Counted from the stretch's first letter, positions 7,307 to 31,737 are shown. The stretch: DNA of 49,188 nucleotides from Gemmatimonadota bacterium (GCA_035687725.1 DASRVB010000148.1:1-49188), one strand, 5' to 3'. Numbers and translations are program-made. The notes: generated by a model not told the origin, from the sequence alone.

Positions 7307-7770
7307 ACCGCGAGGAGCTCCAGGCGCTGATTCGACTCGTGGAGGAAAGCGACATCGACGAGCTCGAGATCGGACGCTGGGGACGAACCGTCCGGATCGT
7401 CAAGCGCCGGCAGGATCCGGGGTCCGCGCCGACCGCCGGTCCAACCCATGGCCCCGTTCCTGCATCCGAAGTCCATGCCGCCACGCCCGGTGGTCCCGGG
7501 GGCGACGCCGCGCAGGATCGGGGAACGGAGCATCACGTAGTGGAATCCCCCATGGTGGGGACGTTCTACCGCGCTCCCGCGCCCGAAGCGCCGCCCTTCG
7601 TGGATGTCGGGGACACTGTCCGCGTCGGCCAGACGCTTTGCATTTTGGAGGCCATGAAGCTGATGAACGAGCTCCAGTCCGAGGTCAACGGGACGGTGCG
7701 AAAGGTCCTGGCGGAAAACGGGGCTCCCGTCGAGTACGGACAGCCGCTCTTCGAGATAGAGATACGCTGA
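7303..7770 (+). CDS. accB: acetyl-CoA carboxylase biotin carboxyl carrier protein
   Basis: C-terminal biotinyl domain with the EAMKLMNE biotinylation motif and a Pro/Ala linker. The GTG start overlaps the efp stop (GTGA at 7303-7306). Confidence 0.9.
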   Translation: MNREELQALIRLVEESDIDELEIGRWGRTVRIVKRRQDPGSAPTAGPTHGPVPASEVHAATPGGPGGDAAQDRGTEHHVVESPMVGTFYRAPAPEAPPFVDVGDTVRVGQTLCILEAMKLMNELQSEVNGTVRKVLAENGAPVEYGQPLFEIEIR

Positions 7771-7774
7771 GGTC

Positions 7775-9762: not shown

Positions 9763-9774
9763 AAAGGGATTCGT

Positions 9775-11517: not shown

Positions 11518-11547
11518 GCGCGCGCGCTTTCCCCCGGAGGCGCTGAA

Positions 11548-12915
11548 TTGTTCCGGAAGGTCCTGATCGCCAATCGCGGGGAGATCGCCCTGCGCGTGAT
11601 CCGGGCCTGCCGGATGCTCGGCCTGAAGACCGTTGCGGTCCATTCCAAAGCCGATGCGGAGGCCCTGCACGTCCGCTTCGCCGACGAGGCGGTGTGCGTG
11701 GGCCCCGCTCCATCCGCCGAGTCGTATCTGAACATCCCGCGCCTCATCGCCGCGGCGGAGGTCACGGGGGCGGACGCCGTCCACCCGGGCTACGGCTTCC
11801 TGGCGGAGAACGCGGAGTTCGCCCAGATCTGCGCGGAGTCGAACCTCGTGTTCATCGGTCCCACCCCCGAGCAGATCCGCCAGATGGGCGACAAGTCCGA
11901 GGCCCGGCGGCTCATGCAGGAGGCCGGCGTACCGGTGGTCCCGGGTTCTCCCGGTGCAATCGACGAGGAACGGAAGGCGCGGCTGGCGGCGGAGGAGATC
12001 GGCTACCCCGTTCTGGTCAAGGCCGCCGCGGGGGGCGGCGGGAAGGGAATGCGGATCGCGCGCGACGCCGAGGAGTTCGCGGCGGCGTTCCCGCAGGCCC
12101 GGCGCGAGGCCGAGGCCGCTTTCGGGGACGGCCGCGTGTACATCGAGAGGTTCCTCGAGCGTCCGCGGCACATCGAGATCCAGGTTCTCGGAGATCGTCA
12201 GGGAAACGTCATCCACCTCGGCGAGCGCGACTGTTCCTGCCAGCGCCGGCATCAGAAGCTGCTCGAGGAGGCGCCGTCGCCCGGGATCACCGAAGACCTC
12301 CGGAAGCGCATGGGAGACGCGGCGGTCCGGGGGGCGGCCCGGATCGGGTATCTCGGAGCCGGAACGATGGAGTTCCTGGTCACCGAGAGTGGGGACTTCT
12401 TCTTCATGGAGATGAACACCCGCATCCAGGTAGAGCATCCGGTGACCGAGATGGTCACCGGTCAGGACCTCGTACTGCGCCAGCTGACGATCGCCGCCGG
12501 AGAGCCGCTGGACCTGCGGCAGGACCAGGTACGGTTCCGCGGGCACGCGATCGAGTGCCGGATCAACGCCGAGGATCCCGACCGGAAGTTCATGCCCACC
12601 CCCGGCCGGATCGTCACCTTCCACCAGCCCGGCGGACCGGGCGTGCGGGTGGACACGGCGGCGTACCAATCCTATGTGATCCCGCCCTACTACGACTCGC
12701 TGGTCGCGAAGGTGCTGGCGCACGGCACCGACCGCGCGCAGGCGATCGCCCGAATGCGGGTGGCGCTGGACGAGTTCGTGGTAGAGGGGATCGCCACCAC
12801 GATCCCGCTCCATCGCAAGCTGATCCAGGAGCCCCGCTTCCTGGCGGGCAAGGTCCACACGCGCTTCGTCGAGGAGTGGCTCCACGAGGACATCCCCGCG
12901 CCCGCGACCGTGTGA
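11548..12915 (+). CDS. accC: acetyl-CoA carboxylase biotin carboxylase subunit
   Basis: [21 protein letters not shown], an ATP-grasp (GGGGKGMRI) and [14 protein letters not shown]. The start is TTG at 11548, preceded by GGAGG at 11536-11540. Confidence 0.95.
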
Positions 12916-12978
12916 TCGGCAAGCAGGTCGCAACGCGAGCCTCGTATAGTGGTTCAACGACCTGTTAAGTTTCCTTCC

Positions 12979-15225
12979 ATGCCCCGAAAGAAGAAAAAAG
13001 ACTCGACGCGGCTGAAGCGCGAGATCCTCGGAATCCTGATGGCCGCCACCGGGGGCTTCGTGCTGGTCGCCCTGTGGCCATGGGACCCGGGGGTCGACCG
13101 CGGGCCCGAAACCCTCAACCGCGTGGGGATCCTGGGCGCGTACAGCGCATTCTATCTCTACCGGGCGCTGGGATTCGGTGCGCTGGCGCTGGGCGCCGGG
13201 CTGGCGGCGTTCGGGATCCTGCTCCTGTTCGACCGCGTGACGCGGAAGGCGCTGACGCTCGGCCTCGGCGCGCTGGCGGCCGTGTGGCTGCTCCTGTCGG
13301 TCTTCGGAGTGACCGCCGCATGGATCGCCGGACCGTCGCCGTGGGGTACGCGTGCGGGGGCGGCGGGGATGGCGACCGCATCGGGTCTGATCCAGGGCGT
13401 GGGTCTGGCGGGCGCGCTGATCTTCTGCGTCGTCGCCGCGATCGTCCTCGCGGCCGCGACCTTCCGGATCTCGCTCGCCGCCACGGTGGAGGCCGGAGTC
13501 GAAGCCGGTCGCGCGGGCGGGCGCCACGCGCGCGAGCGGTTCGACCGGATCGGCGGCCGGCTGTCCGGCTGGAGCGAGGAGCGCAGGGCCCGCGGCGGGG
13601 AAGAGGAAGACGAACCAGAGGAGCCCGTAGGGGAGCCGGCGCCGGTCACCGTGGCCGTTCCGGCGCCTGCGGCTCCGGGCCACCAGGCCCCCCGCTCGCG
13701 CCCCGCCAGGGGGTCCACGCCCCGGCGGTCCCGCCCCGAATCCGAGGGAGGGGCCGGCTGGCTGCCGCCACTGTCGCTCCTCGAGGCGCAGGCCGATACC
13801 GACACCGGCCAGACGACCGACGACCTCGACCGGCTCGGCCGGGTGCTGATCGAGAAGCTGCGCTCCTTCAACGTCGAAGGGGAGATCGCGGCGATCCATT
13901 CCGGACCGGTACTCACCCAGTTCGAGGTCTCGCCGGCGCCCGGCGTCAAGGTGAACCAGATCGCCAACCTCGCCGACGACCTCGCGCTGGCCATGCGCGC
14001 GCAGCGGATCCGGATCGTCGCCCCGATCCCGGGCAAGGGGGCGGTCGGCATCGAGATCCCGAACCCGCGGCCGCGCGTGGTGCGGATGCGGGAGATGCTG
14101 GAGAGCCCTCTATGGAGCGGGTTCGGGGGCAAGGTCCCGCTGGCATTGGGACACGAGATCGCGGGGGCGCCGATCGTCGCCGACCTGACCCGCATGCCGC
14201 ACCTCCTCATCGCGGGCGCCACCGGCTCGGGAAAATCGGTGTGCATCAACGCGATCGTGACGAGCCTGCTGTATCGCTACGGCCCCGACGCCGTCCGCTT
14301 CATCATGATCGACCCGAAGATGCTGGAACTCGTCGTCTACAACGGCATTCCGCATCTACTCCACCCGGTCGTGGTCGAGCACAAAGAGTCCGCCAAGGCC
14401 CTCAAGTGGACAGTGTCCGAGATGGAGCGCCGGTACCGCCTGCTGGCGGCCAACGGGATCCGCAGCCTGGCGGACTACAACGCCCGGGTCAAAGCGGGCG
14501 ACCTGGTCGACCCCGCGGGTGGAGACGACGACCGGCGTCCGTTGCCATACATCGTCGTGCTGATCGACGAGCTGGCCGATCTGATGCTCACCGTCCAGCA
14601 GGAGATCGAGGAGCCCTTGGCGCGCCTGGCCCAGATGGCGCGCGCCGTAGGGATTCACCTCGTGCTGGCGACGCAACGGCCGTCGGTCAACGTGATCACC
14701 GGCGTCATCAAGGCGAACTTCCCCTCGCGGATCAGCTTTCAGGTCTCGTCCAAGATCGACAGCCGCACGGTGCTGGACATGAACGGCGCGGAGCAGCTGC
14801 TGGGGAACGGCGACATGCTGTTCCTGCCTGCCGATCGCGCCGAGCCGGTCCGGATCCAGGGCGCTTTCATCTCGAGCGAGGAGACGGGCCGTGTCGTGGA
14901 CTGGCTGCGCGAGGCGGGGCGCCGCCTGAACGCCGAGGAGATCGCCCCCCCCGTGGACATCATCGCCGAGGCCTCCGAGCTGGAGATCGCGGCGCTCGAC
15001 GAGCGCGACGAGCTGTTCTTCGCCGCCGCCCGGGTCGTCGTCGACCACGATCAGGGGTCGACGAGCCTCCTCCAGCGGCGCCTGCGGGTGGGATATTCGC
15101 GCGCCGCGCGGATCCTCGATCAGCTGGAGCGCGCGAACATCGTGGGTCCCCCCGACGGCACCAAGCCGCGGGACGTGCTGATCACCGTCGATGACCTCGA
15201 GACGCTCGAGGCGAGCTCGCTGTGA
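12979..15225 (+). CDS. ftsK: DNA translocase FtsK
   Basis: N-terminal TM helices, a Pro/Arg/Glu linker, a motor domain (Walker A GATGSGKSVCIN; LIDELADLM), and a gamma winged-helix (GYSRAARILDQLERANIVGP). I chose ATG 12979 (MPRKKKKDS...); an in-frame GTG at 12949 is an alternative. Confidence 0.9.
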   Translation: MPRKKKKDSTRLKREILGILMAATGGFVLVALWPWDPGVDRGPETLNRVGILGAYSAFYLYRALGFGALALGAGLAAFGILLLFDRVTRKALTLGLGALAAVWLLLSVFGVTAAWIAGPSPWGTRAGAAGMATASGLIQGVGLAGALIFCVVAAIVLAAATFRISLAATVEAGVEAGRAGGRHARERFDRIGGRLSGWSEERRARGGEEEDEPEEPVGEPAPVTVAVPAPAAPGHQAPRSRPARGSTPRRSRPESEGGAGWLPPLSLLEAQADTDTGQTTDDLDRLGRVLIEKLRSFNVEGEIAAIHSGPVLTQFEVSPAPGVKVNQIANLADDLALAMRAQRIRIVAPIPGKGAVGIEIPNPRPRVVRMREMLESPLWSGFGGKVPLALGHEIAGAPIVADLTRMPHLLIAGATGSGKSVCINAIVTSLLYRYGPDAVRFIMIDPKMLELVVYNGIPHLLHPVVVEHKESAKALKWTVSEMERRYRLLAANGIRSLADYNARVKAGDLVDPAGGDDDRRPLPYIVVLIDELADLMLTVQQEIEEPLARLAQMARAVGIHLVLATQRPSVNVITGVIKANFPSRISFQVSSKIDSRTVLDMNGAEQLLGNGDMLFLPADRAEPVRIQGAFISSEETGRVVDWLREAGRRLNAEEIAPPVDIIAEASELEIAALDERDELFFAAARVVVDHDQGSTSLLQRRLRVGYSRAARILDQLERANIVGPPDGTKPRDVLITVDDLETLEASSL

Positions 15226-15241
15226 CGCGCGCGGGCTGCCG

Positions 15242-16222
15242 GTGAAGCGCATCCTGGTGACAGGCGCCGCCGGGTTCATCGGGTCCTGGCTGACCGAGCG
15301 ACTCCTCGAGCGTGGGAACCGGGTCGTAGGGCTCGACAACTTCGATCCGTTCTACGACCGGGGGATCAAGGAGCAGAACCTCGATGGCGTGCGCGGGAAC
15401 GCCGCGTTCCGACTGGTCGAAGGCGACCTCAGGGACCGCGCGGAGGTCTTGGCGCTGTTCGCCGACGGGGCATTCGAGGTGGTGGTGCATCTGGCTGCCA
15501 AGGCCGGCGTCCGTCCGTCGCTCGCCGATCCGGCCGGCTACTACGAGACGAACCTGATCGGAACGTCGAACCTGCTCGAGGCGATGCGTCAGGCCGGCTG
15601 CCGGCGGCTCGTATTCGCCTCGTCGAGCTCGGTGTACGGCAACAACCGCAAGGTGCCGTTCCACGAGGACGACCGGGTCGATGCCCCGATCTCGCCCTAT
15701 GCGGCGACCAAGAAGGCGGGCGAGGAGCTGTGTCACGTCTATCATGCCGTGCACGGCTTCTCGATCCTCGCTCTGCGCTTCTTCACCACGTACGGTCCGC
15801 GTCAGCGCCCGGAGATGGCGATCCACGCCTTCACCCGCCGGCTCTTCGCGGGCGAGCCCATTCCGGTCTTCGGCGACGGCTCGATGGAGCGCGACTTCAC
15901 GTACATCGACGACATCGTGGACGGGGTCGTGTCCGCCGTGGATCACGTGATCGGAACCGATACGTTCGAGATCCTCAACCTCGGGCAATCCGAGCCGGTT
16001 CGGCTCTCCCGGCTGGTCGCCGCGCTGGAACAGGCCACCGGGTGCGAGGCCACGATCGACCGGCGCCCGGTTCCTCCGGGCGACGTCGATCGCACCTTCG
16101 CCGACGTCTCGCGCGCTCGCCGGCTGCTGGGGTACGAGCCCAGCATCGGAATCGACGAGGGGTTGCAGAGGTTCGTGGACTGGTATCGAGGAGCGATGCT
16201 GGAGCAATCCCACAGGGCGTGA
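15242..16222 (+). CDS. NAD-dependent nucleotide-sugar epimerase, UDP-glucuronate 4-epimerase-like
   Basis: Extended SDR features: VTGAAGFIGSWL, catalytic YAATKKAGE and FFTTYGPRQRPEMAIHAF. The last block is typical of the Cap1J/UDP-GlcA 4-epimerase clade as I recall it. I set the start to GTG 15242, after the ftsK stop at 15225. Confidence 0.7.
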   Translation: MKRILVTGAAGFIGSWLTERLLERGNRVVGLDNFDPFYDRGIKEQNLDGVRGNAAFRLVEGDLRDRAEVLALFADGAFEVVVHLAAKAGVRPSLADPAGYYETNLIGTSNLLEAMRQAGCRRLVFASSSSVYGNNRKVPFHEDDRVDAPISPYAATKKAGEELCHVYHAVHGFSILALRFFTTYGPRQRPEMAIHAFTRRLFAGEPIPVFGDGSMERDFTYIDDIVDGVVSAVDHVIGTDTFEILNLGQSEPVRLSRLVAALEQATGCEATIDRRPVPPGDVDRTFADVSRARRLLGYEPSIGIDEGLQRFVDWYRGAMLEQSHRA

Positions 16223-16226: not shown

Positions 16227-17576
16227 ATGAACGAGAGGAAGGCGATGGTCGAGAACGCAGAGCGATTGAATCGGGCGATCGAGTCGAAGGAGGCGCGGAT
16301 CGGCGTCATCGGCCTGGGGTACGTGGGCCTGCCGCTGGCGCTCGCCTTCACAGGTCGCGGCTTCCGGGTGCTGGGCTTCGACGTGGACGCGCGCAAGGTC
16401 GAGAAGCTCAATCGAGGGATCTCCTACATCCCCCACATGGACGCGCAGCGGATCCGCGAGGGAGTCGAAACCGGCCGGCTGGCCGCGACCGAGGACTTCG
16501 ATCGCCTATCGGAGGTGGACGCGATCGTGATCTGCGTTCCCACGCCCCTCGACGTGCACAACGAGCCCGACATGACCTATATCGAGGCCACCACCGAGGA
16601 GATAGCTCGGTGCCTCAGGGCCGGTCAGCTGGTCGTTCTCGAGTCGACCACCTACCCGGGCACCACCGACGAGCTGATGCGCGAGCGCCTCGAGGCTGGT
16701 GGGATGGTCCTGGGCGAGGACTTCTTCCTGGCCTTCTCCCCCGAGCGCGAGGATCCCGGGAATCCGAAGTTCTCGACGACCACGATCCCCAAGGTGGTCG
16801 GTGGGGTGGACGAGGTCTCCGGGGACCTGGCCGAGGCGCTGTACCGGCAGGCGATCGGCGAAGTCGTTCGCGTTTCCTCGGCGCGCGCCGCCGAAGCGAC
16901 GAAGCTGACCGAGAACATCTTCCGGGCCGTCAACATCGCGCTCGTCAACGAGCTCAAGGTGATCTACGAGCGGATGGACATCGACGTCTGGGAGGTGCTC
17001 GACGCGGCCGAGACCAAGCCGTTCGGGTTCATGCGCTTCAACCCCGGGCCCGGCTGGGGTGGCCACTGCATCCCCATCGACCCATTCTACCTGACCTGGA
17101 AGGCGCGCGAGTTCGGCGCCTACACCCGGTTCATCGAGCTGGCCGGCGAGATCAACACCCGGATGCCCGAGCACGTGGTGGATCGCGTGGCGGCCGCGCT
17201 CAACGACGTCGGGAAGCCGCTCAAGGGGAGCCGCGTCCTCATCCTCGGCTTGTCCTACAAGCCCGACATCTCCGACGATCGCGAATCGCCCAGTTATCGG
17301 CTGATGGATCTGCTGGACGAACGCGGCGCGGAGGTGGCCTACCACGATCCGCACGTCCCGGTCATCCAGCCGAGTCGGGAGCACGGGCACTGGGCGGGTC
17401 TCGAATCGGTGGCCTGGGAGCGGCAGACGATAGAATCCCACGACGCAATCGTGATCTCGACCGATCACTCGGCCATCGATTACGCCCGGCTCGCGGAATG
17501 GGGACGCCTCATCGTCGACACGCGCAACGCCATGGCCGGGATCGACGCGCCGGCGGGCAAGGTGTGGAAGGCTTGA
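16227..17576 (+). CDS. UDP-N-acetyl-D-hexosamine 6-dehydrogenase (TviB/WbpA/WecC-type nucleotide-sugar dehydrogenase)
   Basis: Rossmann motif IGVIGLGYVGLPLALAF, a UDPG/MGDP dehydrogenase central domain with the catalytic Cys (GWGGHCIPIDP) and a C-terminal UDP-binding domain. It is paired with a TviC-like epimerase downstream. Confidence 0.75.
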   Translation: MNERKAMVENAERLNRAIESKEARIGVIGLGYVGLPLALAFTGRGFRVLGFDVDARKVEKLNRGISYIPHMDAQRIREGVETGRLAATEDFDRLSEVDAIVICVPTPLDVHNEPDMTYIEATTEEIARCLRAGQLVVLESTTYPGTTDELMRERLEAGGMVLGEDFFLAFSPEREDPGNPKFSTTTIPKVVGGVDEVSGDLAEALYRQAIGEVVRVSSARAAEATKLTENIFRAVNIALVNELKVIYERMDIDVWEVLDAAETKPFGFMRFNPGPGWGGHCIPIDPFYLTWKAREFGAYTRFIELAGEINTRMPEHVVDRVAAALNDVGKPLKGSRVLILGLSYKPDISDDRESPSYRLMDLLDERGAEVAYHDPHVPVIQPSREHGHWAGLESVAWERQTIESHDAIVISTDHSAIDYARLAEWGRLIVDTRNAMAGIDAPAGKVWKA

Positions 17577-19934: not shown

Positions 19935-19993
19935 CCACATCCATACTGCGTGGGTAGGATTCGGCTGACTCGATCCGTGGGGAGGGGGTTCTC

Positions 19994-22159
19994 ATGATCA
20001 AGATCAACAGCCAGGTGGTGGACCCGGCATCACGATCGTCACTCGCGAACGGCAACGGTCACGCCACGGCACCCGCGGGGGCCTTCGACACCTCTTCGTT
20101 CGCGGTTCCCGACGGGCGTCTCAATCCCAACGGCGATGCCCGTGTCCGGATCGGCACGCGGGCGCTCAAGGCCCTTGACTGGATCCTCACCAAGGTCGCC
20201 AAGGCCACATTCGACGGCATTCAGCTCGTCAACAGGTATCGCCCGAATCCGTCCTTCACGCCGAAGTGGAGCGAGAAACCGCTCCTCAAGTCGTGGGAAA
20301 AGTCCAAGCCCCGGCTCGGCTGGCCGCGCGAAACCGACTCGCTGTGCCCCAAGTGCGTCATCGAGGCGCGCAAGCGGATCATCGAGGGGGAGGAGGACTA
20401 CAAGGTCCTGATCCACGAAAAGGTGGGCGAGATAAAGGCCCAGATCGTGGAGCGCGACGGTCAGGTGTGGATGGTCAAGGAGTGCCCGCAGCACGGTCGC
20501 TTCGAGGACCTGATGGCGATCGACTCACGGTTCCTGGAATGGATCGAGTCGAACTTCCCGGGCCGCGACCTGCGCGCGCACAACGACGGCGGCTTGCACG
20601 ACCATGGCTCGTCCACGATCAAGCACGGCCGCGGGTCGGTGCTCACCGTGGACCTGACGAACCGCTGCAACATGATGTGCGATCCCTGCTTCATGGACGC
20701 CAACCAGGTCGGCTTCGTCCACGAACTGGAGTGGGAGGAGATCCAGGAGATCCTCGATAACGCGCTGAAGATCAAGCCCCGGCGCCAGATGTCGGTCCAG
20801 TTCTCGGGCGGCGAGCCGACCCTGTCACCGCACTTCCTCCGCGCGGTGAGGTACGCGCGCGACATCGGATACAACTCCGTCCAGGCCGCGACCAACGGCA
20901 TCGAGTTCGCCAAGAGCGCGGAGTTCGCCAAGCAGGCGGCCGAGGCGGGTCTGAGGTTCGTATACCTGCAGTTCGACGGCATCGGCAACGACGCAAACAG
21001 TCACCGCAAGGTGGGCAATCTGTTCGACGTCAAGCTCAAGGCGATCGACAACCTGTACAACGCCGGCGTCCAGATCGTGCTCGTCACGACGCTCGTGAAC
21101 ACGGTGAACAACGACCAGGTCGGGCCGATCGTCAGGTTCGCGCTCGACAATCCGAAGAAGATCGCGTTCATCGCCTTCCAGCCGGTGTCGTTCACCGGCC
21201 GCGACGACGAGATCACGGACGAGCGCCGGATGCGGCAGCGGTACACGCTCTCCCATATGGCGCGGGACGTGAAGCATCAGCTTGGCGTGACCGAGCCGTT
21301 GCGCGACTGGTTCCCGATCTCCCTGATGGGCCCGTTCGCGGACTTCGCGGACATGGTTCACGGCCCGACGGCCGAATGGGGCCAGACCAGCTGCGGCTGC
21401 CATCCGAACTGCGGGGTCGGAACCGCGCTCATGATCAACAAGAACACCAAGGAGTTCCGCCCGGTGCCGGAGTTCCTCGACATTCCGGGGCTCATCGCGG
21501 ACGTCCAGAAGATCACCGACGCCAACCGTGGCAAGTGGATGTCGAACGCCATGATGGGATTGGCCCTGCTGAAGAACTACGCGCCCTACAAGGCGCCGCC
21601 GAGCCTGACGCTGATCGACATCTTCAAGAAGTTCGACAAGTCGTTCGGCTTGACCGGCAAGGACTATGGCTCGCTGGGTCCCGACGGCGCGTGGGAGCGG
21701 CGCAAGGATCCATGGAACTTCCTCTTCGTGGCCGGGATGTGGTTCCAGGACCTGTTCAATTACGACTTCCGCCGAACGGAGATGTGCATCATCCCTTACG
21801 CCACGCAGGAAGGGGAGATCTCGTTCTGCGCCTACAACACCGGACACGGGTGGCGGAACATCATCGAGAACATGCACAAGAACGCCACCGTGGCCGAGTG
21901 GTACAAGGAGAAGGGGCGCCATGAGATCTTCGCCGGCGGCAAGGAAGTTCCGCTGGGAAACTACGACCACGCGCTGAAGGTCGACGCGGCGGACGCGGCG
22001 CGCGTGCGCGACCGCGGCGAAGGTCCGCAGAACGCGCACGAGGAGCGCCTGGCGGCGAAGAAGGCTGCGCGCGAGGCGCAGATGGTGCGCGAGTACTACG
22101 AGAAGATGGTGCTCAAGAAGAAAGGGGAGGAGCAACAGCTCGTACAGATCGACCTGTAG
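19994..22159 (+). CDS. radical SAM enzyme of the MJ0619 / tetraether lipid synthase (Tes, GDGT-MAS) family, with extra N- and C-terminal extensions
   Basis: 721 aa. Zinc-ribbon/rubredoxin-like CPKC...CPQH (res 118-167), CNMMCDPC triad (nt 20666-20689), then QFSGGEPT, YLQFDGIG and FQPVSFTGRDDE. A second Cys cluster SCGCHPNC lies at res 467-473, and the C-terminus has MCIIPYATQEGEISFCAYNTGHGWR. The order and wording of these blocks match my recollection of MJ0619-family proteins. Not verified by search. Confidence 0.75.
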   Translation: MIKINSQVVDPASRSSLANGNGHATAPAGAFDTSSFAVPDGRLNPNGDARVRIGTRALKALDWILTKVAKATFDGIQLVNRYRPNPSFTPKWSEKPLLKSWEKSKPRLGWPRETDSLCPKCVIEARKRIIEGEEDYKVLIHEKVGEIKAQIVERDGQVWMVKECPQHGRFEDLMAIDSRFLEWIESNFPGRDLRAHNDGGLHDHGSSTIKHGRGSVLTVDLTNRCNMMCDPCFMDANQVGFVHELEWEEIQEILDNALKIKPRRQMSVQFSGGEPTLSPHFLRAVRYARDIGYNSVQAATNGIEFAKSAEFAKQAAEAGLRFVYLQFDGIGNDANSHRKVGNLFDVKLKAIDNLYNAGVQIVLVTTLVNTVNNDQVGPIVRFALDNPKKIAFIAFQPVSFTGRDDEITDERRMRQRYTLSHMARDVKHQLGVTEPLRDWFPISLMGPFADFADMVHGPTAEWGQTSCGCHPNCGVGTALMINKNTKEFRPVPEFLDIPGLIADVQKITDANRGKWMSNAMMGLALLKNYAPYKAPPSLTLIDIFKKFDKSFGLTGKDYGSLGPDGAWERRKDPWNFLFVAGMWFQDLFNYDFRRTEMCIIPYATQEGEISFCAYNTGHGWRNIIENMHKNATVAEWYKEKGRHEIFAGGKEVPLGNYDHALKVDAADAARVRDRGEGPQNAHEERLAAKKAAREAQMVREYYEKMVLKKKGEEQQLVQIDL

Positions 22160-22179: not shown

Positions 22180-22776
22180 TTATCTATAGAAGGGGTTGGC
22201 GCCGGCGGCGTGGTCGGTCGTGTCGACTACCTGCTCGATTTCGGGCAGGAGCTCCTTCAGGCGCGTCTCGATCCCCTGCTTGAGGGTGACGTCGACGAGG
22301 CCGCAGCCGTGGCACCCTCCGCCGAAGCTCAGGTACACCACTCCGTCCTCCACTCCCGCCAGCTCGACCCGACCGCCGTGGGCCGCGACCGCGGGATTGA
22401 TCTCGGTGTCGAGCAGACGCCGGATCTTCTCGGCGGTGGTTCCCGTCAGGTCCGCGCGGGCCCCGGAAGGGATCGTCGGCGATGGTAGGGGATTGGGGTT
22501 CTCGAACCGGAAGCCGCTCTCCAGCAGGGTCTCCCGGTAGTCCAGGCGCGCTCCCCGCAGCCAGCCGGCGCTTTCGGGGTCCAGCACGATCCGGAAGCCG
22601 ACCTCCTCCAGGACGAAGTCGTCGTCCCGCACCTCGTCGGCCGCCATCGCGGCCAGCCTGTACTGGAAGCCCTGCCCGCCAGGACGCGCCTCGATCCGGA
22701 GGTGGTCCCGCGGCGGAGCGGCGCGTTCGAGCGACGCCTGGATCTTCTCTCGGGCAACGGGGGTGAGCTCGAGCAC
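22180..22776 (-). CDS. nfuA: Fe-S cluster carrier NfuA (degenerate A-type N-domain + Nfu domain)
   Basis: 198 aa. The IscA/HesB-like N-terminal half lacks the Cys ligands. The C-terminal half (INPAVAAHGGRVELAGVEDGVVYLSFGGGCHGCGLVDVTLKQGIE) parallels E. coli NfuA, including the CxxC. Confidence 0.85.
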   Translation of the reverse strand: MLELTPVAREKIQASLERAAPPRDHLRIEARPGGQGFQYRLAAMAADEVRDDDFVLEEVGFRIVLDPESAGWLRGARLDYRETLLESGFRFENPNPLPSPTIPSGARADLTGTTAEKIRRLLDTEINPAVAAHGGRVELAGVEDGVVYLSFGGGCHGCGLVDVTLKQGIETRLKELLPEIEQVVDTTDHAAGANPFYR

Positions 22777-24355: not shown

Positions 24356-25723
24356 ATGCGCGTGGGAGTATTCGGCGCCGGCTACGTGGGCTTGGTTACG
24401 GGAACCTGTTTCGCGGAGATGGGGAACGACGTCGTGATCCGCGACGTGGACGAAGATAGGATCGCCGGGCTCCGGCGCGGGAAGATTCCGATCTACGAGC
24501 CGGGGCTGGAGGAGATGCTCCAGCACAACCTGGAGAGGGGACGCATGCGGTTCACCACGGACGGCCAGGAGGCCGTGCGCTCTTCCGAGGTCGTCTTCGT
24601 CGCGGTGGGAACGCCGGCGGGGGAGGACGGGTCGGCCGACCTGTCACACGTCCTGGCCGTCGCGCGCGATGTCGCGGAGCACGCGGACGGCCCGCGGATC
24701 GTCGTGAACAAGAGCACCGTGCCGGTGGGAACCGGCCGCAAGGTCCGCGAAATGCTGGCCGCGTTCTCACCGCACGAGTTCCTGGTGGTGTCCAATCCGG
24801 AGTTCCTCAAGGAGGGCTCGGCGCTAGAGGATTTTATGAAGCCCGATCGCGTGGTCATCGGAACCGACAACGACCGCGCTCGGGATGTCATGCGCCGGCT
24901 CTATGCCCCGTTCATTCGTACCGGGAACCCGATCTGCTTCATGGATATCGAATCGGCCGAGATGACGAAGTACGCAGCCAATGCGATGCTCGCTACGCGT
25001 ATCACGTTCATGAACGAGATCGCCAACCTCTGCGAGCGCGTGGGAGCCAACGTCGACGAGGTGCGGATCGGGATCGGCTCGGACAGGCGGATCGGGCCGG
25101 CGTTTCTGTTTCCGGGTGCCGGCTTCGGCGGATCCTGCTTCCCCAAGGACGTGCGGGCGCTGGAGCGGCTGGGCGACGAAGTCGGCTACGAGTTCCCGAT
25201 CATGCGCGCGGTCCATGCCGTCAACGAGGCCCAGAAGCGGGTGCTGGGCGAGAAGGTGCGCGCACGCTTCGGCGACGATCTGACCGGGCGCCGGTTCGCG
25301 GTCTGGGGAGTGGCCTTCAAAGCACGGACAGACGACATCCGCGAGGCACCCGCCCTGGTGGTCGTGGAAGACCTGTTGAGCGCCGGCGGCGAAGTAGTCG
25401 TGTTCGATCCCGAAGCCCTGGACAACGCCAGAGGCGTCCTCGGCGACCGGGTGATCTACGCGGACAGCGCGCACGAGGCATTGAACGGCGCCGACGCGCT
25501 CGTGGTGGTCACGGAGTGGAACGAGTTCCGGTTCCCGGACTTCGAGCGCATGCGGAACGAGCTCAAGTCGCCGGTCGTGTTCGATGGGCGCAACCTGTAC
25601 GACCCACGGACCATGTCCGAGCTGGGCTTCGAGTACTTCTCGATCGGCCGTCCGGGCTGGCGGGCGGGCGCGGCGCGACCAACCCCGACGGTCGCGGCCG
25701 AGCTGGCCGGAGAGCAGGGCTGA
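24356..25723 (+). CDS. ugd: UDP-glucose 6-dehydrogenase
   Basis: [36 protein letters not shown], catalytic [10 protein letters not shown], and a C-terminal UDP-binding domain. Confidence 0.9.
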
Positions 25724-26718
25724 TGCGGGTCCTGGTCACGGGCGCCGCGGGCTTCCTGGGGTCCCATCTCTGCCGTCGACTGCTTGCCGAAGGGCACGAG
25801 GTGATCGGCATGGACAACTTCGTCACCGGCCGACCGGGGAACGTAGCCCCGCTGTTCGAGACGCGGGATTTCCACTTCATCCACCACGACGTCACGAACT
25901 TCGTCTACGTGGACGGTCCGCTCGACGCGGTCATGCACTTCGCCTCTCCCGCGAGCCCGATCGATTATCTGGAGCTTCCGATCCAGACGCTGAAGGTGGG
26001 GTCGCTGGGGACCCACAAGAGCCTGGGTCTCGCCAAGGCCAAGGGGGCCAGGTATTTCCTCGCATCGACGTCGGAGGTCTACGGCGACCCCCTGGTCAAT
26101 CCCCAGCCGGAGTCGTACTGGGGCAACGTCAACCCGGTGGGGCCGCGCGGGGTCTACGACGAGGCGAAGCGATTCGCGGAGGCGCTGACGATGGCCTACC
26201 ATCGATATCACGGCCTCGACGTGCGCATCGTACGGATCTTCAACACCTATGGACCCGCAATGCGTCCCCACGACGGGCGCGTGGTCTCCAACTTCATCCG
26301 CCAGGCGCTCTCGGGTGAGCCGCTGACCGTATACGGAGACGGCTCGCAGACGCGCTCGTTCTGCTACGTGGACGACGAGGTCGACGGGATCTATCGGCTG
26401 CTGACGTCGGACTTCGTGGGCCCCATGAACATCGGCAACCCGGACGAGATGACCGTCATGCAGCTCGCCCGGCTCGTGCTCGAGCTGACGGGGACGGCGA
26501 GCGGCATCGAGACCCGCCCCCTTCCCCAGGACGACCCGCGGGTCCGGCGCCCGATGATCGACCGGGCCCGCGAGGTGCTGGGCTGGGAGCCGCGGACCTC
26601 GCTCGCCGACGGTCTGGCGAGAACGATCGAGTACTTCCGTCAGCTCCCGGAAAGCGAGCTCGCCGGGCGCGCGGCGACGCCTGCCGGGGCGCAGGCGGGC
26701 AGGACCGCCGGCCGGTGA
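25723..26718 (+). CDS. uxs: UDP-glucuronate decarboxylase (UDP-xylose synthase)
   Basis: [27 protein letters not shown], catalytic YDEAKRFAE and RIFNTYGP; this is the UXS clade of extended SDRs. The ATG at 25723 shares one base with the ugd stop (TGATG). The longer track ORF (25516) is an artefact. Confidence 0.85.
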
Positions 26719-27338
26719 CGCGCCTGGTTCTAGGCATCGCGGGCGGGACCGGCTCCGGCAAGACGACCGTGGCGAACAACATCGTGAAGCGGCTTGCGCT
26801 CGACTCGATCACCGTCATCACGATGGATTCCTACTACCGCGACCTGGCGGATCTTCCGCCGACCCGCAGAGACGAAGTGAACTTCGATCACCCGGACTCC
26901 ATCGAGCACGAGCTGTTCGTGCGGCACCTGACGGAACTCAAAGCCGGCCGGCAGATCGAGCAGCCGGTCTACGACTTCACGCGGCACGAGCGGACGGGAG
27001 AGACGGTCACGATCGAGCCGCGTGACGTGATCATCGCCGAAGGCATTCTCCTTTTTCACGTGCCGGAGATACGCGCGGTGCTGGACATCCGGATCTTCGT
27101 GGACACCCCGGCAGACGTGCGGCTCCTCAGGCGCATCACGCGGGATATCCGCGAGCGCGGGCGGACGCTCGAAAGCGTCGCCGAGCAGTACGTGCGTACC
27201 GTCCGCCCCATGCACGAAGAGTTCGTGGAGCCGTCGAAGCGATACGCGGACGTGATCATCCCGGAGGGTGGATACAACGACATCGCCATCGACATGGTCA
27301 CCAGCCGTATCCGCCTGATGCAGGAGGTCTACGGTTGA
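26715..27338 (+). CDS. udk: uridine kinase
   Basis: P-loop [24 protein letters not shown], and [12 protein letters not shown] lid. The GTG start overlaps the uxs stop (GTGA). Confidence 0.9.
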
Positions 27339-28309
27339 AGCGCGCGCTGATCACGGGGATCACCGGCCAGGACGGCTCCTACCTCGCCGAGCTGCTGCTG
27401 ACCAAGGGCTACGAGGTGCACGGCATCGTCCGGCGGGCTTCCACCGAGAAGTTCGACCGCATCTCGCATATCAAGTCCGAGTTGCATTTGCATCAGGCCG
27501 ACCTCCTGGATCAGCGGTCGCTGGTCCTCGCGATCGAGGCCTCCCGGCCCGCCGAGGTCTACAACCTCGCCGCCCAGTCGTTCGTTCCGACCTCCTGGGC
27601 ACAGCCCATCCTGACCGGGGAGTTCACGGGTCTCGGCGTCACGCGCGTCCTGGAGTCGATCCGCCAGGTGGATCCCTCCATCCGGTTCTATCAGGCGTCG
27701 TCGAGCGAGATGTTCGGCAAGGTCAGGACGTCGCCCCAGGACGAGTCCACCCCGTTCCACCCGCGGAGCCCCTACGGCGTGGCCAAGGTCTACGGTCATT
27801 TCATCACCGTGAACTACCGGGAGTCCTACGACATGTTCGCGGTCAGCGGGATCCTCTTCAACCACGAGTCGCCGCGCCGCGGGCTGGAGTTCGTGACCCG
27901 GCACGTGTCGGACGGGGCGGCGCGGATCGCGCTCGGGCTGGCGGACAAGCTGCCGATCGGAAACCTCGACGCGGAACGGGACTGGGGCTTCGCGGGCGAC
28001 TACGTGGACGCGATGTGGCGGATGCTGCAACGCGACGAACCGCGCGACTACGTGATCGGGACCGGCGTCCCGCACTCCGTGCGCGACGTGTGCCGCATCG
28101 CCTTCGGGCACGTGGGCCTGGACTGGGAAAGCCATGTCGAGGTCGATCCCGGGCGATTCCGGCCGGCGGAAGTCGACCATCTGACAGCGGACTACTCGCG
28201 CGCGCGCCAGGAGCTCCGGTGGGAGCCCGTCGTCGAGTTCGAGGAGCTCGTGCGGATGATGGTCGATGCGGACGTCCGTCGCCTGAAGGGAGAGGTGGTC
28301 ACGGCGTGA
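27335..28309 (+). CDS. gmd: GDP-mannose 4,6-dehydratase
   Basis: [28 protein letters not shown], catalytic [20 protein letters not shown]. The TTG start overlaps the udk stop (TTGA). Confidence 0.95.
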
Positions 28310-29190
28310 GCGCTGCGGCCGTTGCTCCTCCCGGGATTCTACCGGAAACCCTGCAGCGCGCGGAAGAGGTGCTGGCCGGTGAAGCCGTGCCCTCCGGGCT
28401 CGTCGACTTCCACAGCCACCTCGTTCCGGGAGTGGATGACGGCGCGCGCGATCTCGGCGAAGCGGTGCGCGGCGTGGACACCCTGGCCGCGGAGGGCATC
28501 CGCCACGTCCTCACGACGCCGCACATCGACGCCAGCACGATCGCCAGGCCCGAGCTCTTCGAGCCGCAGCAGCGCGAGGTCGAAGAGGCGTGGTTTCGGG
28601 TCGTGGACGCCTGCGTCGACCGGGAGCCTCGCATGAGCTTCCACCTGGGGCGCGAGATCCTCCTCGACACCGCGACCCCTGCGCTGTCCGACCCGCGGGT
28701 GCGACTCAACGGCGGACCCTACGTCCTGGTGGAGTTTCCCCGGCTGAACCTGCCCGCCGGCTCGGAGGACGCGCTCGGGCACATCACAGGGCTGGGATAC
28801 CGGCCGGTGGTGGCCCATGTCGAGCGATATCTGTACCAGGGCGATCCCGTGCCCTTGTGGGACGAGTGGCGGCACGCCGGCGCCGCGCTCCAGGTGAACG
28901 CCGCCTCGTACGTGGGCCGCTACGGCGCAAACGCCCGCGAGCTGGCCTGGCGTGCGCTCGAGCTGGGCTGGGTCGACCTCGCGGCGAGCGACTACCACGC
29001 CCGTGGACGACCCTGGATCACGCAGGCGCGAGACGAGCTTCGGGCCGCGGGGGGCGATGGGCAGGACGCGATGCTGTTCGAGCGCAATCCGCGGCATGTG
29101 CTGCGCGGCGAGCCGCTGGAGGCCGTGGATCCGCTCGTGCAACATCGCAGCGCCTGGAGCCGGATGCGGAAGTACTTCCGCATCCGGTGA
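28306..29190 (+). CDS. PHP-family protein-tyrosine phosphatase, CpsB/YwqE-like
   Basis: [13 protein letters not shown] (metal-binding HxH...DDG), [13 protein letters not shown] and ASDYH, which parallels S. pneumoniae CpsB block by block. The GTG start at 28306 overlaps the gmd stop (GTGA). The track ORF from 28015 is an artefact. Confidence 0.8.
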
Positions 29191-29214
29191 GAATCGCCAC
29201 CGGAGCGGGGCGGG

Positions 29215-29829
29215 TCAGCCGCGCGTCAGCAGGATGACCAGGCTGACCGTACTGCTGATCATGCCGACCAGGAGCCTCCAGTTCTGCGCCCACCCGCTGG
29301 CGGAGGGGACGAGGAGCTGGTCGCCGGATCGGAGCGCGAGGCTCCGGACCGCTGGCGGATCGTCGAGGTCGATCTCGATCTCGCTCTCCCCGCGGATGAG
29401 GATGACTCGATCGTCCTTGGCGGCAGGCGTCGGACCGCCGGCCAGCGCCAGCGCCTCCACCAGGGACATGGTCGGGTCGACGGGGTACACCCCTTCGTGG
29501 GCCACCTCACCGCTGATCAGGATCCGTCGCAGGACGACGACCTCGATCGAAGGATTTCGAAGGGTCTTGGAGTATTCCTCGATCAGGTGGGTCCTGAGCT
29601 CCGAGGGGGTGTACCCGGTGACGTGGACCGGTCCGATCTTGGGCAGGACGGCGTTGCCGTCCTCCTGGACCAGGAACTCCCCAGTCAGATCCGGCTCACG
29701 CCAGATGTTCAGCCGGATGACGTCGCCGGGCACGAGCTTCGACTCGGGCCGGTCGGCTGCATCCTGGCCTCGCACCGTCAAAGGGATAGCGATGGCCGCC
29801 AGTAGCAGCGCGCTGAGCGTTCGATGCAT
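29215..29829 (-). CDS. polysaccharide export protein, Wza/Poly_export + SLBB-like
   Basis: Signal peptide (MHRTLSALLLAAIAIPLTVRGQ), a Poly_export block (LVPGDVIRLNIW...DGNAVLPKIGPVHVTGYTPSEL) and an SLBB-like block (ISGEVAHEGVYPV...SLVEALALAGG). A C-terminal hydrophobic helix follows. I set the start to ATG 29829. Confidence 0.75.
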   Translation of the reverse strand: MHRTLSALLLAAIAIPLTVRGQDAADRPESKLVPGDVIRLNIWREPDLTGEFLVQEDGNAVLPKIGPVHVTGYTPSELRTHLIEEYSKTLRNPSIEVVVLRRILISGEVAHEGVYPVDPTMSLVEALALAGGPTPAAKDDRVILIRGESEIEIDLDDPPAVRSLALRSGDQLLVPSASGWAQNWRLLVGMISSTVSLVILLTRG

Positions 29830-30021
29830 GTCCGCTTCTTCCGTCGAGGTAGGAAATCGCTGTCGAATATACGAAGCAGGTCGGTGGAGCACTATACGAG
29901 GCTCGCGCGCAGGGGGCTTGCCGGGCAGGTATGAGGGCGGCTCGCCGCGTACCCGGGTCTGCGTGTAGCTTACCGTTCCGTCTCACCGCGGCCCCGAAGC
30001 CGGTTTCCACTTCCAGACGAC

Positions 30022-31737
30022 ATGACAAGGGACAGTCCGATGCTCACCGGGGTATGTCGCAGGGTCCTGCCGCTCGCCTGGACCGCCGTGGTCATGGCGG
30101 CACCACAGGCGGGGGCTTCTCAGAGTCTGAGAGCGGTGCCGCTCGACCACTGGGCGTACGACGTGGCGGAAGAGCTGCTCCTGCGGCATCCCGCGCTCGG
30201 CGTGGGCCTCTGGCTCGGCAACCGGCCCTGGCGCGAGGCGGATTTCCACACGTTGCTCGCGCGCGCCGATAGCGCGGGACTCGGCGATACCGACCGGCGC
30301 GCATCTGCGTCGATCGAGCTCATGGGTCGGGCCTTCCCCGAGCGGGCGCCTGCCGTGGCCGAGGTGGCGATCCACAACGAGGCTTCCCTGTGGCTGACCG
30401 CGCATGCCAGCCGGAACGAAGCCGCGTTCGATCCCTCGTTCCTGGGGGTGCGCTTCGAGGAATCCGACGGGGACCCGCCGATACCGGCCCTCCGCGGCGT
30501 CCTCCAGCACGATTTCGCGGTACAGTACAGGGACCGCTTCGCGCTCGGCTGGCGCTACGCCATCGACTCGGACGTGACCGGCGATCCCACCCGCTTCCGG
30601 CAGCTCGAGGCGCGCGAGGACACCGACTATGGGTTCGCGCTCCTCGACGCGTATGCGGTATACGGCTACGGCCCCCTTCGCGTCACCGCCGGACGCAACG
30701 AACTGTGGCTGGGGCAGGCGGGCCGATCGAGCAGCGTGTTCGTGAGCGACTCGATACCGCCGATCGATCAGGTGCGGATCGATCTGGTCACCCGAACGCT
30801 GCGCTTCACGGGCCTGATCGGCCGGCTGAGCGGCGACGAGCAGAACCGCTCGCTCGACGAGCATGGGGAGACGATTCCGGGATCCATGCCGCCGCCCGCG
30901 GGCGAGCGCCGGGACGTGGACCGGATCTTCTATCTCCACCGGGTGGACTGGCAGCCGGCCGACTACATCCAGGTGGCGATCTCGGAGGCGGCCTTCGTGA
31001 CCGGCATCGACCGCGGGCTGGACGCGCGCTACGCGAACCTCCTGATCCCGTTCTTCGTCACTCAGGAGGACGAGGACGAATCGGGAGGCGTAGACGTCAA
31101 CGTCATGGTCGACGTCGAGGGCGTCCTGCTCGTTCCTCGGGGAGCGCGCATCTGGGCGAACGTATTCGTGCAGGAGTTCTTCATCGACGCGGACAAGCGG
31201 GAGAACATCGGAAACCAGCTGGCGTACAAGGCAGGCGCGGAGATGGCGGGTGATGCGCTGGGCCTCCCGGCCATCACCGCCGGGGTGGAGTACACTCGCG
31301 TGGACGTCTTCTCGTACCTGCACCGGGGCCTGAACACGAATCACACCCAGTTCGGGGTTCCCATCGGCAGCTCGCTGGGGCCCGACGCGGACATGGCCCA
31401 GGGATGGATCAGCTGGCGGCCGTGGCCGAATCTGCGCCTGACCGTCGATGCGATGATGCGGCGCGACGGGGAGCGAGGGGTGGAGACGCTCGAGAGTGTG
31501 ATCGACGCCGGTCACCCCGACTTCCCGAGCGGCGTCGTGCAACGCGAGCGCCGGTTGGGTGTAGAAGGGTGGGGATTGCTGCCCGGCCACGGCGTGGAAG
31601 GATTGCTGCGGGTCAGCGCCCATGACCTGACCGACATCGAGCACGACCCTGGGAGAGAGGGAACGTTCTGGACGGCCGAGGTGGGTCTTCGGGTGCGACA
31701 TCTGTTCGCGAGCAGCGGGCCGAGGGTGGCGCAATGA
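30022..31737 (+). CDS. outer-membrane capsule-assembly protein, Wzi-like
   Basis: A signal peptide, then LDHWAYDVAEELLLRHP (compare E. coli Wzi LRNDLAWLSDRGVI). GRNELWLGQAGRSSSVFVSDSIPPIDQV parallels QWWGPGYEGSLIRGDAMRP, FFVTQEDEDESGG parallels GQMIGEDESG, and GNQLAYKAG parallels GNQLAGFD. The body has alternating beta-strand character. An alternative start is ATG 30040. Confidence 0.65.
   Translation: MTRDSPMLTGVCRRVLPLAWTAVVMAAPQAGASQSLRAVPLDHWAYDVAEELLLRHPALGVGLWLGNRPWREADFHTLLARADSAGLGDTDRRASASIELMGRAFPERAPAVAEVAIHNEASLWLTAHASRNEAAFDPSFLGVRFEESDGDPPIPALRGVLQHDFAVQYRDRFALGWRYAIDSDVTGDPTRFRQLEAREDTDYGFALLDAYAVYGYGPLRVTAGRNELWLGQAGRSSSVFVSDSIPPIDQVRIDLVTRTLRFTGLIGRLSGDEQNRSLDEHGETIPGSMPPPAGERRDVDRIFYLHRVDWQPADYIQVAISEAAFVTGIDRGLDARYANLLIPFFVTQEDEDESGGVDVNVMVDVEGVLLVPRGARIWANVFVQEFFIDADKRENIGNQLAYKAGAEMAGDALGLPAITAGVEYTRVDVFSYLHRGLNTNHTQFGVPIGSSLGPDADMAQGWISWRPWPNLRLTVDAMMRRDGERGVETLESVIDAGHPDFPSGVVQRERRLGVEGWGLLPGHGVEGLLRVSAHDLTDIEHDPGREGTFWTAEVGLRVRHLFASSGPRVAQ

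Follow-up and report, generated by a model that had tools for sequence, protein, structure and literature searches.

A radical SAM enzyme of the tetraether lipid synthase family lacking the N-terminal auxiliary cluster, and its radical SAM partner gene, in a Gemmatimonadota bacterium

A 49,188-nucleotide stretch of DNA from a Gemmatimonadota bacterium (GCA_035687725.1 DASRVB010000148.1:1-49188), hereafter called the window, contains an open reading frame (ORF) for a protein of the radical S-adenosylmethionine (SAM) type related to the archaeal tetraether lipid synthase, Tes, and to its structurally characterized member GDGT-MAS (MJ0619). This Tes-like gene lies directly downstream of a second radical SAM gene, which we termed rSAM2 (Table 1). 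The ORF is a real gene, with a GC content of 0.91 at third codon positions, as in genuine genes of this window of 65-70% GC; a scan for promoters and terminators around the locus gave counts at the background level. The QFSGGEPT, YLQFDGIG, and FQPVSFTGRDDE blocks were found in the translation, and the MCIIPYATQEGEISFCAYNTGHGWR block contains C598, Y602, and C612. All of the motif blocks listed in an earlier reading of this DNA (the original prediction) were present in the translation where they had been placed, with CNMMCDPC at nucleotides 20666-20689 exactly. The protein possesses 11 Cys in total (118, 121, 164, 225, 229, 232, 467, 469, 473, 598, and 612), each of which was invariant in an alignment of 17/17 members of its clade.

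Table 1. Coordinates of the Tes-like gene, its motifs and clade-specific segments, and flanking genes in the window
Feature	Coordinates	Strand	Remarks
Tes/GDGT-MAS-family radical SAM gene, bacterial three-cofactor clade	19994..22159	+	721 aa, ATG start
Shine-Dalgarno-like run GGGAGGGGG	19980..19988	+	5 nt before the ATG, from direct reading of the sequence
Residues 1-50, variable low-complexity N-terminus	19994..20143	+	mean identity in clade 0.24
Residues 51-82, clade-specific amphipathic helix	20144..20239	+	AlphaFold2 helix 53-82, pLDDT 80-92
Residues 86-110, clade-specific linker PSFTPKWSEKPLLKSWEKSKPRLGW	20249..20323	+	85% mean clade identity
Rubredoxin-like Fe site, residues 111-175	20324..20518	+	C118-x2-C121...C164-x2-H167 with 22-residue helical insert
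[Fe4S4]N loop remnant, residues 197-212, NDGGLHDHGSSTIKHG	20582..20629	+	0 Cys, His204 retained
Radical SAM CX3CX2C, C225/C229/C232 (CNMMCDPC)	20666..20689	+	MJ0619 C98/C102/C105, invariant
C467-G-C469-H-P-N-C473	21392..21412	+	C473 is a [Fe4S4]C ligand; C467 and C469 are clade-specific extras
Met582, counterpart of MJ0619 labile Met439 ([Fe4S4]C)	21737..21739	+	column invariant
C598...Y602...C612, remaining [Fe4S4]C ligands and active-site Tyr	21785..21829	+	MJ0619 C455/Y459/C470, invariant
Residues 626-721, clade-specific C-terminal extension	21869..22156	+	60-68% clade conservation, none in archaeal Tes
rSAM2, 416 aa, PF04055	18684..19934	+	59 nt upstream of the Tes-like gene
Sugar-nucleotide epimerase	15191-16222		upstream of rSAM2
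UDP-sugar dehydrogenase	16227-17576		upstream of rSAM2
Second epimerase	ends 18607		upstream of rSAM2
NfuA-like Fe-S carrier (Fe-S_biosyn and NifU domains, Pfam)	22180..22776	-	convergent, ends 20 nt past the stop of the Tes-like gene

Family membership was assessed by domain models, sequence searches, and fold comparison. Two Pfam domains were recognized in the Tes-like protein, PF23545 Zn_ribbon_HMPTM (55.9 bits, cut-off 27) and PF04055 (69.7 bits, E = 4.4e-19). The top NCBIfam model was tetraether lipid synthase Tes (NF045702) at 326.5 bits, under its curated equivalog cut-off of 450, and other members of the window clade scored 299-324 bits on the same model. The second NCBIfam model was TrsS (NF045646), with 224.8 bits versus a cut-off of 490 and a best stretch covering residues 146-430 only; on this score, identity with TrsS was rejected. 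When sequences of the Protein Data Bank were searched with phmmer, the single strong match was GDGT-MAS 7TOL (E = 7e-68, residues 146-625), and the next matches were MoaA and SkfB at ∼1e-6. An AlphaFold2 model built from a 44-sequence alignment had a mean predicted local distance difference test score (pLDDT) of 78.2 and a predicted template modeling score (pTM) of 0.83. Foldseek matched this model to 7TOM and 7TOL with a target-normalized template modeling (TM) score of 0.85 and E = 7e-34; the runner-up was MoaA at 8e-7, 27 orders of magnitude weaker. The model preserves the four-domain fold of GDGT-MAS, with its C-terminal helical lipid-binding domain. The protein was 31-35% identical to 27 archaeal Tes sequences. 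The Tes-like protein is a clear GDGT-MAS/Tes homologue, as the original prediction had proposed, and the AlphaFold model agrees in fold with the crystal structure. It is not a canonical Tes: its score does not reach the equivalog cut-off, the family tree places it in a separate, bacterial half, and it lacks the ligands of one auxiliary cluster.

The cofactor sites were compared with those of GDGT-MAS, in which Lloyd 2022 (PMC9433317) described four metallocofactors. These are a rubredoxin-like Fe bound by C9-x2-C12-x20-C33-x2-H36, an [Fe4S4]N cluster whose ligands are C73, C77, C80, and a His, the radical SAM cluster, and an [Fe4S4]C cluster that has Met439 as a labile ligand. According to the same work, the substrate radical is held on [Fe4S4]C through a C-S bond, conservation of Tyr459 and Met439 extends over 1000 archaeal homologues, and the role of the remaining cofactors, [Fe4S4]N among them, is unknown (PMC9433317). 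We aligned the window protein and 16 further clade members with the 27 archaeal Tes sequences, including full-length MJ0619. C118, C121, C164, and H167 aligned with MJ0619 C9, C12, C33, and H36, the spacing being x42 instead of x20 owing to the 22-residue insert. C473, C598, and C612 corresponded to C338, C455, and C470, M582 to M439, and Y602 to Y459; these five residues and the C225/C229/C232 triad were invariant over the 17 clade and 27 archaeal sequences. The [Fe4S4]N site differed: the positions of C73 and C77 were lost through a 10-residue deletion, C80 was replaced by L201, and H83 was retained as H204, with no Cys present between residues 165 and 224. All three Cys ligands were missing in 17/17 clade members and present in 27/27 archaeal Tes, and the corresponding loop (residues 197-212) was the least confident internal region of the model, disordered with pLDDT <50. 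Of the two extra Cys in the clade, both clade-invariant, C467 occurred in 0/27 archaeal sequences and C469 in 8/27. Judged from these sequences, the clade keeps three of the four GDGT-MAS metallocofactor sites plus the active-site Tyr and has lost the surface cluster [Fe4S4]N. The original prediction had counted three metal sites in GDGT-MAS and suggested a check of their conservation; the enzyme has four, and conservation at the sequence level extends to the rubredoxin-like, radical SAM, and [Fe4S4]C sites. Within the residual loop, residues 202-211 (nucleotides 20597-20626) contain a clade-invariant H202-x-H204, and position 211 is occupied by His, Tyr, or Trp. This segment might bind another metal, or nothing.

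Relative to MJ0619 (506 aa), the window protein has an N-terminal excess of ∼109 residues, calculated from the C118/C9 equivalence, and a C-terminal excess of ∼73 residues, calculated from C612/C470. The ∼115 and ∼70 additional residues noted in the original prediction are thus present, as features of the whole clade rather than peculiarities of this copy. Residues 1-50 were absent in Acidobacteriota homologues, and residues 1-30 had pLDDT <50. The helix at residues 51-82 exhibited the highest hydrophobic moment of the protein (muH 0.64), and no transmembrane segment was detected in the Tes-like protein (best 19-residue Kyte-Doolittle window, 1.25). The linker at residues 86-110 is preceded by RPN at residues 83-85 and followed by P111, which opens the rubredoxin-like part; this linker is absent from archaeal Tes, whose start is the rubredoxin knuckle. 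The C-terminal extension includes a charged helix at residues 681-705. From the sequence and the model we infer that helix 51-82 may mediate a peripheral, in-plane association with the membrane.

Among the matches listed, homologues from Gemmatimonadota metagenome-assembled genomes (MAGs) were 80-95% identical to the window protein and those from Acidobacteriota were 67-77% identical. The acidobacterial carriers in that set included Pyrinomonadaceae, Blastocatellia, Terriglobia, Solibacteraceae, and Acidiferrales, the gene was likewise found in one Eisenbacteria MAG, and the nearest relatives were from Pyrinomonadaceae, Blastocatellia, and Solibacteraceae. With "SMAG" soil MAGs as its nearest genomes, the source bacterium is probably from soil. 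When one genome per GTDB species was scanned with a sequence pattern, at least 596 genomes contained a Tes-like relative, and a representative library of 1.84 billion proteins yielded 581 representatives at E≤1e-30; cluster look-ups for cultured members of the clade gave none. Full-length representatives with the N-cluster motif CPxxCGxCxxH scored 474-593 bits on the Tes model, and those without it scored 204-414 bits, the window clade (299-326 bits) included. In a midpoint-rooted neighbor-joining tree without bootstrap (69 sequences, 478 columns), the window clade formed a group with very short internal branches on a long stem. Every member of its half of the tree lacked the N-cluster motif, which was present throughout the other half apart from a few members. 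The phylogenetic placement suggested in the original prediction therefore puts the protein within the family, in a bacterial half apart from the sequences that mostly carry the motif. A divergent member of the N-cluster-less half was WP_014786616.1 (P0130) of the subdivision-1 acidobacterium Terriglobus roseus DSM 18391, which was 41% identical and was without the N-cluster motif and also without the Cys of the C-terminal cluster. If functional, this paralogue must employ different chemistry, and it bears on the apparent absence of Tes homologues among producers of iso-diabolic acid.

The partner protein, rSAM2, contains a CX3CX2C motif (C101, C105, C108) and five further invariant Cys (C321, C339, C372, C375, C379), with C372-x2-C375-x3-C379 forming a twitch/SPASM-like motif. 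A fold search likewise placed it among twitch/SPASM enzymes (nearest SkfB, BlsE, and CteB), returning generic members of that class only and no functional clue. Residues 1-62 were of low complexity with pLDDT <50 and include no additional structured N-terminal domain. The gene was directly upstream of the Tes-like gene in 7/7 genome loci and 12/12 metagenome loci of Gemmatimonadota type (19/19), and a close rSAM2 homologue was found within 6 kb of the Tes-like gene in 0/75 other loci. The two genes are probably co-transcribed in Gemmatimonadota. With 171 proteins at E≤1e-10, rSAM2 forms a small family, whose members at ≥69% identity were all of Gemmatimonadota type, bar a few MAGs labeled otherwise. 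Relatives at 43-50% identity were ∼340 aa long, some being labeled Planctomycetota or Sedimentisphaerales; most were located away from Tes-family genes, and 4 of ∼70 were adjacent to one, in three further arrangements. In two related loci (L085 and L086), a Tes-like gene whose product was 63% identical to the window protein and lacked the N-cluster was followed by an rSAM2 relative (at 7001-7996 in L085). In a third (L117), a canonical-type Tes gene preceded an rSAM2-like gene (4974-5993), and in a fourth (L147) a canonical-type Tes gene and an rSAM2-like gene (3526-4527) were divergently transcribed. The rSAM2 family thus adjoins Tes-family genes in four gene arrangements and at least two phyla; we estimate the adjacency rate of 4 in ∼70 to be far above chance for a roughly single-copy gene. 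A weak rSAM2-like match beside a tes gene in locus L034 was discarded as MoaA. Planctomycete-type rSAM2 relatives were, in 24 loci, adjoined by a protein of ∼464-479 aa with no Pfam match (e.g., L083:5407-6846 and L084:97-1536, with 22 more among L099-L166).

We considered whether rSAM2 could be Gms (GMGT synthase), an AhbD-like protein (36% identical to AhbD, E = 7e-79) that begins with a COG4001 domain of 100 aa and whose bacterial genes cluster with tes or mss, and with tes in Acidobacteria (Garcia 2024). Both rSAM2 and Gms are SPASM/twitch-class radical SAM proteins encoded next to tes-family genes in bacteria. The rSAM2 match to the AhbD model, however, gave 90 bits and was confined to the radical SAM core (positions 2-167 of 339), and the N-terminal domain is missing; rSAM2 was therefore rejected as Gms. 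As a positive control, the product of L045:4956-6587 matched the same model at 229.7 bits over positions 1-338. No description of the rSAM2 family was found in the literature consulted on Tes and membrane-spanning lipids. The protein could catalyze a further modification of the lipid tail, or it could make up for the lost cluster as a partner in redox or assembly.

Lipid-related genes were encountered beside several of the related loci. In L085 (GCA_030550175.1, contig JAUQPW010000024.1), positions 4806-13688 contain four genes in the order Tes-like (63%), rSAM2-like, a 594-aa protein without a Pfam match, and a protein of 1218 aa that combines two BcrAD_BadFG domains with DUF2229. The latter combination is the "BBD" core conserved in the ester-to-ether reductase Ger/PlsA (Sahonero-Canavesi 2022). 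From its gene content, this cluster is a candidate for an entire bacterial cassette that makes membrane-spanning lipids with ether linkages. In a Terriglobia MAG (JAIQGB010000238.1, L045:1944-6587), a Tes-like gene whose product was 72% identical to that of the window is followed ∼0.9 kb downstream by the gene for the 543-aa protein that served as the control above; its full-length AhbD match and 130-aa N-terminal extension give it, by sequence, the architecture of Gms. Loci L117 and L147 have CDP-alcohol phosphatidyltransferase genes beside the Tes/rSAM2-like pair. Such lipid context, seen in one or two loci for each gene type, is supporting rather than decisive.

Taken together, these features lead us to lean towards the view that the Tes-like enzyme couples iso-branched lipid chains tail-to-tail into membrane-spanning lipids, by analogy with GDGT-MAS. 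This reading rests on the fold, the catalytic residues, the conservation of the clade with its 11 invariant Cys, the lipid genes in related loci, the overlap with known producers, the abundance of iso-C15:0, and the amphipathic helix. With respect to producers, iso-diabolic acid and ethers make up >40% of the lipids of Pyrinomonas K22, a member of the family (Pyrinomonadaceae) that dominates the nearest relatives among the matches listed. In Solibacter usitatus, which was picked for its Tes homologues, brGDGTs (branched glycerol dialkyl glycerol tetraethers) account for 66% of lipids (Chen 2022, bioRxiv 10.1101/2022.04.07.487437). Cultured Gemmatimonadota (Gaopeijia) contain 31-43% iso-C15:0 as measured by MIDI fatty acid methyl ester analysis, a method blind to membrane-spanning lipids. 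At the inner membrane, on its cytoplasmic face, the enzyme would link two iso-branched alkyl chains of glycerolipids, probably iso-C15, through their terminal carbons. This reaction would give a membrane-spanning lipid, namely a tetraester or mixed ether/ester of the iso-diabolic acid type, as a brGDGT precursor. By analogy with GDGT-MAS, reductive cleavage of SAM at the radical SAM cluster would yield a 5'-deoxyadenosyl radical that takes a hydrogen atom from a terminal methyl group. Dissociation of Met582 would expose a sulfide of [Fe4S4]C, to which the resulting alkyl radical would be bound through a C-S bond. A second SAM would then generate a radical on the second tail, and attack of this radical on the sulfur-bound carbon would form the C(sp3)-C(sp3) bond.

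Several observations weigh against such a role. The 49-kb window contains no ether-lipid (Ger/PlsA) or dedicated lipid-modification gene, the neighbors in the window are sugar-nucleotide and envelope polysaccharide genes, and a tblastn search of 166 loci plus the window located Ger/PlsA-like and Gms-like genes near a clade member in one distinct locus each. When the flanking ORFs of 82 genome loci were clustered, no universally conserved neighbor was found over the 73 non-Gemmatimonadota loci. No neighbor was shared across Acidobacteriota, and the biggest clusters (18 loci) reflected ordinary Pyrinomonadaceae synteny, such as SurE-like and Pcm-like proteins judged by eye from the sequence. The protein itself scores under the equivalog cut-off and is without [Fe4S4]N. 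With regard to published evidence, the activity of bacterial Tes homologues was still unconfirmed in papers of 2025-2026 (PMC11868695, PMC13459092), and Tes homologues occurred in only 3/14 iso-diabolic-acid-producing Acidobacteria (Sahonero-Canavesi 2022). A distant Tes homologue from T. ethanolicus gave no membrane-spanning lipid in E. coli (Sahonero-Canavesi preprint), and MA_1114 and haloarchaeal homologues yield no GDGT (Zeng 2022, PMC8941075). We found no paper joining Gemmatimonadota with tetraether synthase, and papers that pair Gemmatimonadota with iso-diabolic acid appear, by their titles, not to concern Gemmatimonadota lipids.

Some of these observations would fit a neofunctionalized enzyme of the Tes fold that applies the same radical machinery to another hydrophobic substrate or outcome, with no brGDGT-type lipids being made. 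Intramolecular macrocyclization, cross-linking or modification of acyl, hopanoid, or lipid A chains, and non-lipid C-C coupling would be examples. We regard this possibility as rather unlikely, yet it is the strongest competitor to tail coupling. The long stem in a separate half of the tree, the gap between 326.5 bits and the 450-bit cut-off, and the loss of [Fe4S4]N together with the gain of C467, C469, and the N- and C-terminal extensions are consistent with altered function. So are the obligate pairing with an uncharacterized radical SAM protein in Gemmatimonadota, the envelope-sugar genes and HldE nearby, the poor correlation of Tes homologues with iso-diabolic acid (the 3/14 strains), and the precedents of Tes paralogues without GDGT activity. 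In opposition, every residue that defines the tail-coupling chemistry is retained, the C-terminal helical lipid-binding domain is kept in the model (TM 0.85), Ger/PlsA-like and Gms-like genes occur near the clade in related loci, and the taxonomic range of the clade matches that of known membrane-spanning-lipid producers.

The other explanations fare much worse. It is highly improbable that the gene was acquired horizontally as a true archaeal Tes orthologue whose product converts archaeal-type diethers into isoprenoid GDGTs or macrocyclic archaeol. The fold and catalytic residues are the same, and GDGT-MAS binds bacterial ester phospholipids too, which shows that substrate binding in the family tolerates ester and ether linkages; however, the sub-cut-off score contrasts with the 474-593 bits reached by representatives with the N-cluster motif, and identity to archaeal Tes is 31-35% versus 67-95% inside a purely bacterial clade (among the matches listed). 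Moreover, the window yielded no archaeal lipid gene, and no bacterium is known to make isoprenoid GDGT (Zeng 2022). An enzyme unrelated to lipids, either a peptide maturase of the SPASM type acting on peptides that are made ribosomally and then modified post-translationally (RiPPs) or a TrsS-type radical SAM (seleno)protein, is similarly far-fetched. The protein does give weak NCBIfam matches to many SPASM maturases, and TrsS is its second-best model, but the SPASM matches are limited to the radical SAM core, the TrsS match is far under its cut-off and restricted to part of the protein, fold matches after GDGT-MAS are weaker by 27 orders of magnitude, and related loci outside Gemmatimonadota have no conserved neighbor in common. 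Least credible is the old MJ0619 label, 7,8-dihydro-6-hydroxymethylpterin dimethyltransferase (HMPTM), i.e., a pterin C-methyltransferase of a methanopterin-like or folate-related pathway: several JGI records label clade members so, the Pfam domain name keeps "HMPTM", and a pterin-4a-carbinolamine dehydratase gene is located just downstream in the acidobacterial locus L001, yet that pterin gene adjoins a Tes-like gene in one locus only, and the annotation was rejected on the evidence of Lloyd 2022 (PMC9433317), who could not corroborate the activity and found the MJ0619 active site to be a long hydrophobic pocket with bound lipids.

Compared with GDGT-MAS/Tes (MJ0619, 7TOL/7TOM; M. acetivorans MA_1486), the window protein shares the fold (TM 0.85), the CX2C...CX2H site, the CX3CX2C motif, the three [Fe4S4]C Cys, the labile Met, the active-site Tyr, and the QFxGGEPT, YLQFDG, and FQPVSFTGR blocks. 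It differs by the absence of the C73/C77/C80 ligands, the 22-residue rubredoxin insert, the added C467 and C469, ∼60 conserved extra residues at the N-terminus (helix and linker), and ∼95 extra residues at the C-terminus; in addition, its host is a bacterium with ester- or ether-linked fatty-acid lipids, and the protein itself is known from sequence alone. The idea that bacterial Tes homologues are brGDGT synthases is four years old in the literature. Zeng 2022 (PMC8941075) reported 456 bacterial Tes homologues, selected by BLASTP E <1e-50, identity >20-30% to archaeal Tes, and length >400 aa, and proposed them as brGDGT makers. With MJ0619 in place of the Zeng query MA_1486, the window protein (E = 7e-68, 31-35% identity, 721 aa) is a bacterial Tes homologue by the same definition. 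Lloyd 2022 (PMC9433317) noted bacterial homologues in organisms not known for biphytanyl chains, and Halamka 2022 proposed a Tes-based pathway of diether condensation. The nearest relatives of our protein, Acidobacteriota including Solibacteraceae, and the hypothesized function are those of the Zeng, Chen, and Halamka 2022 homologues; the fixed rSAM2 pairing is peculiar to Gemmatimonadota. Mss is the sole bacterial membrane-spanning lipid synthase with experimental confirmation; the study that identified it found no Tes homologues in Thermotogales or Clostridia (Sahonero-Canavesi 2022). Mss of Thermotoga and Thermoanaerobacter likewise is a radical SAM enzyme that couples bacterial fatty acyl chains tail-to-tail by an analogous proposed mechanism, but it is only remotely related to Tes by its authors' description, comes from anaerobes, and is absent from Acidobacteria. 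In the texts searched, Gemmatimonadota are mentioned neither by Zeng 2022 (main text and supplements) nor in the Black Sea papers. The novelty claimed in the original prediction was hence overstated, in that Zeng, Chen, and Lloyd 2022 had already reported bacterial Tes homologues, with the brGDGT role proposed by Zeng. What is new here is the host phylum, the missing [Fe4S4]N, and the rSAM2 partner, the latter two apparently undescribed.

The brGDGTs are among the most used terrestrial proxies of palaeotemperature and pH. To our knowledge, neither their producers nor the C-C coupling enzyme in aerobic soil bacteria have been established. Bacterial Tes homologues are the leading candidates for this coupling step, and the present locus extends the candidates to Gemmatimonadota, which the literature searched does not discuss as a brGDGT source. 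A bolder proposal, which we put forward as speculative and judge unlikely as it stands, is that Gemmatimonadota, as an abundant soil phylum rich in iso-C15:0, make brGDGT-type lipids by means of a two-gene radical SAM module composed of the three-cofactor Tes-like enzyme and rSAM2. Within such a module, rSAM2 would either replace the lost electron-transfer cluster or add a second modification to the lipid tail. If true, the brGDGT palaeoclimate proxies would gain a new source phylum, and the pathway a new enzyme; the picture remains unchanged until a product is demonstrated. Independently of the product, an Acidobacteriota/Gemmatimonadota clade without the N-terminal auxiliary cluster bears on the role of that cluster in archaeal Tes, and in rSAM2 a second radical SAM family recurs beside Tes-family genes.

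The remainder of the window is dominated by other functions. The NfuA-like gene that converges on the Tes-like gene also adjoins it in 4/7 rSAM2-carrying genome loci of Gemmatimonadota type (L003, L004, L006, and L007) and in the Acidobacteriota loci L001 (7117-7716), L014, and L016, where the orientation is divergent. This carrier plausibly supplies or repairs the clusters of the Tes-like enzyme. Past the NfuA-like gene are HldE, more UDP-sugar and GDP-mannose genes, Wza, Wzi, and BamD. The diderm context described in the original prediction was upheld for BamD/YfiO and Wza, whereas LolA was not found in the ORFs scanned with Pfam; SurA, Wzc, Wzi, and HldE were further diderm markers in the window. 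An envelope-polysaccharide region occupies positions 4084-6786 (- strand), 8857-11517 (+ strand), and 24356-32432, and includes genes for a Wzc-like tyrosine kinase, Wza, Wzi, a CpsB phosphatase, and several UDP-/GDP-sugar enzymes, with a DUF4254 gene immediately after Wzi. A fused ATP-sulfurylase/APS-kinase gene beside an inositol-monophosphatase/CysQ-like gene hints that the polymer is sulfated.

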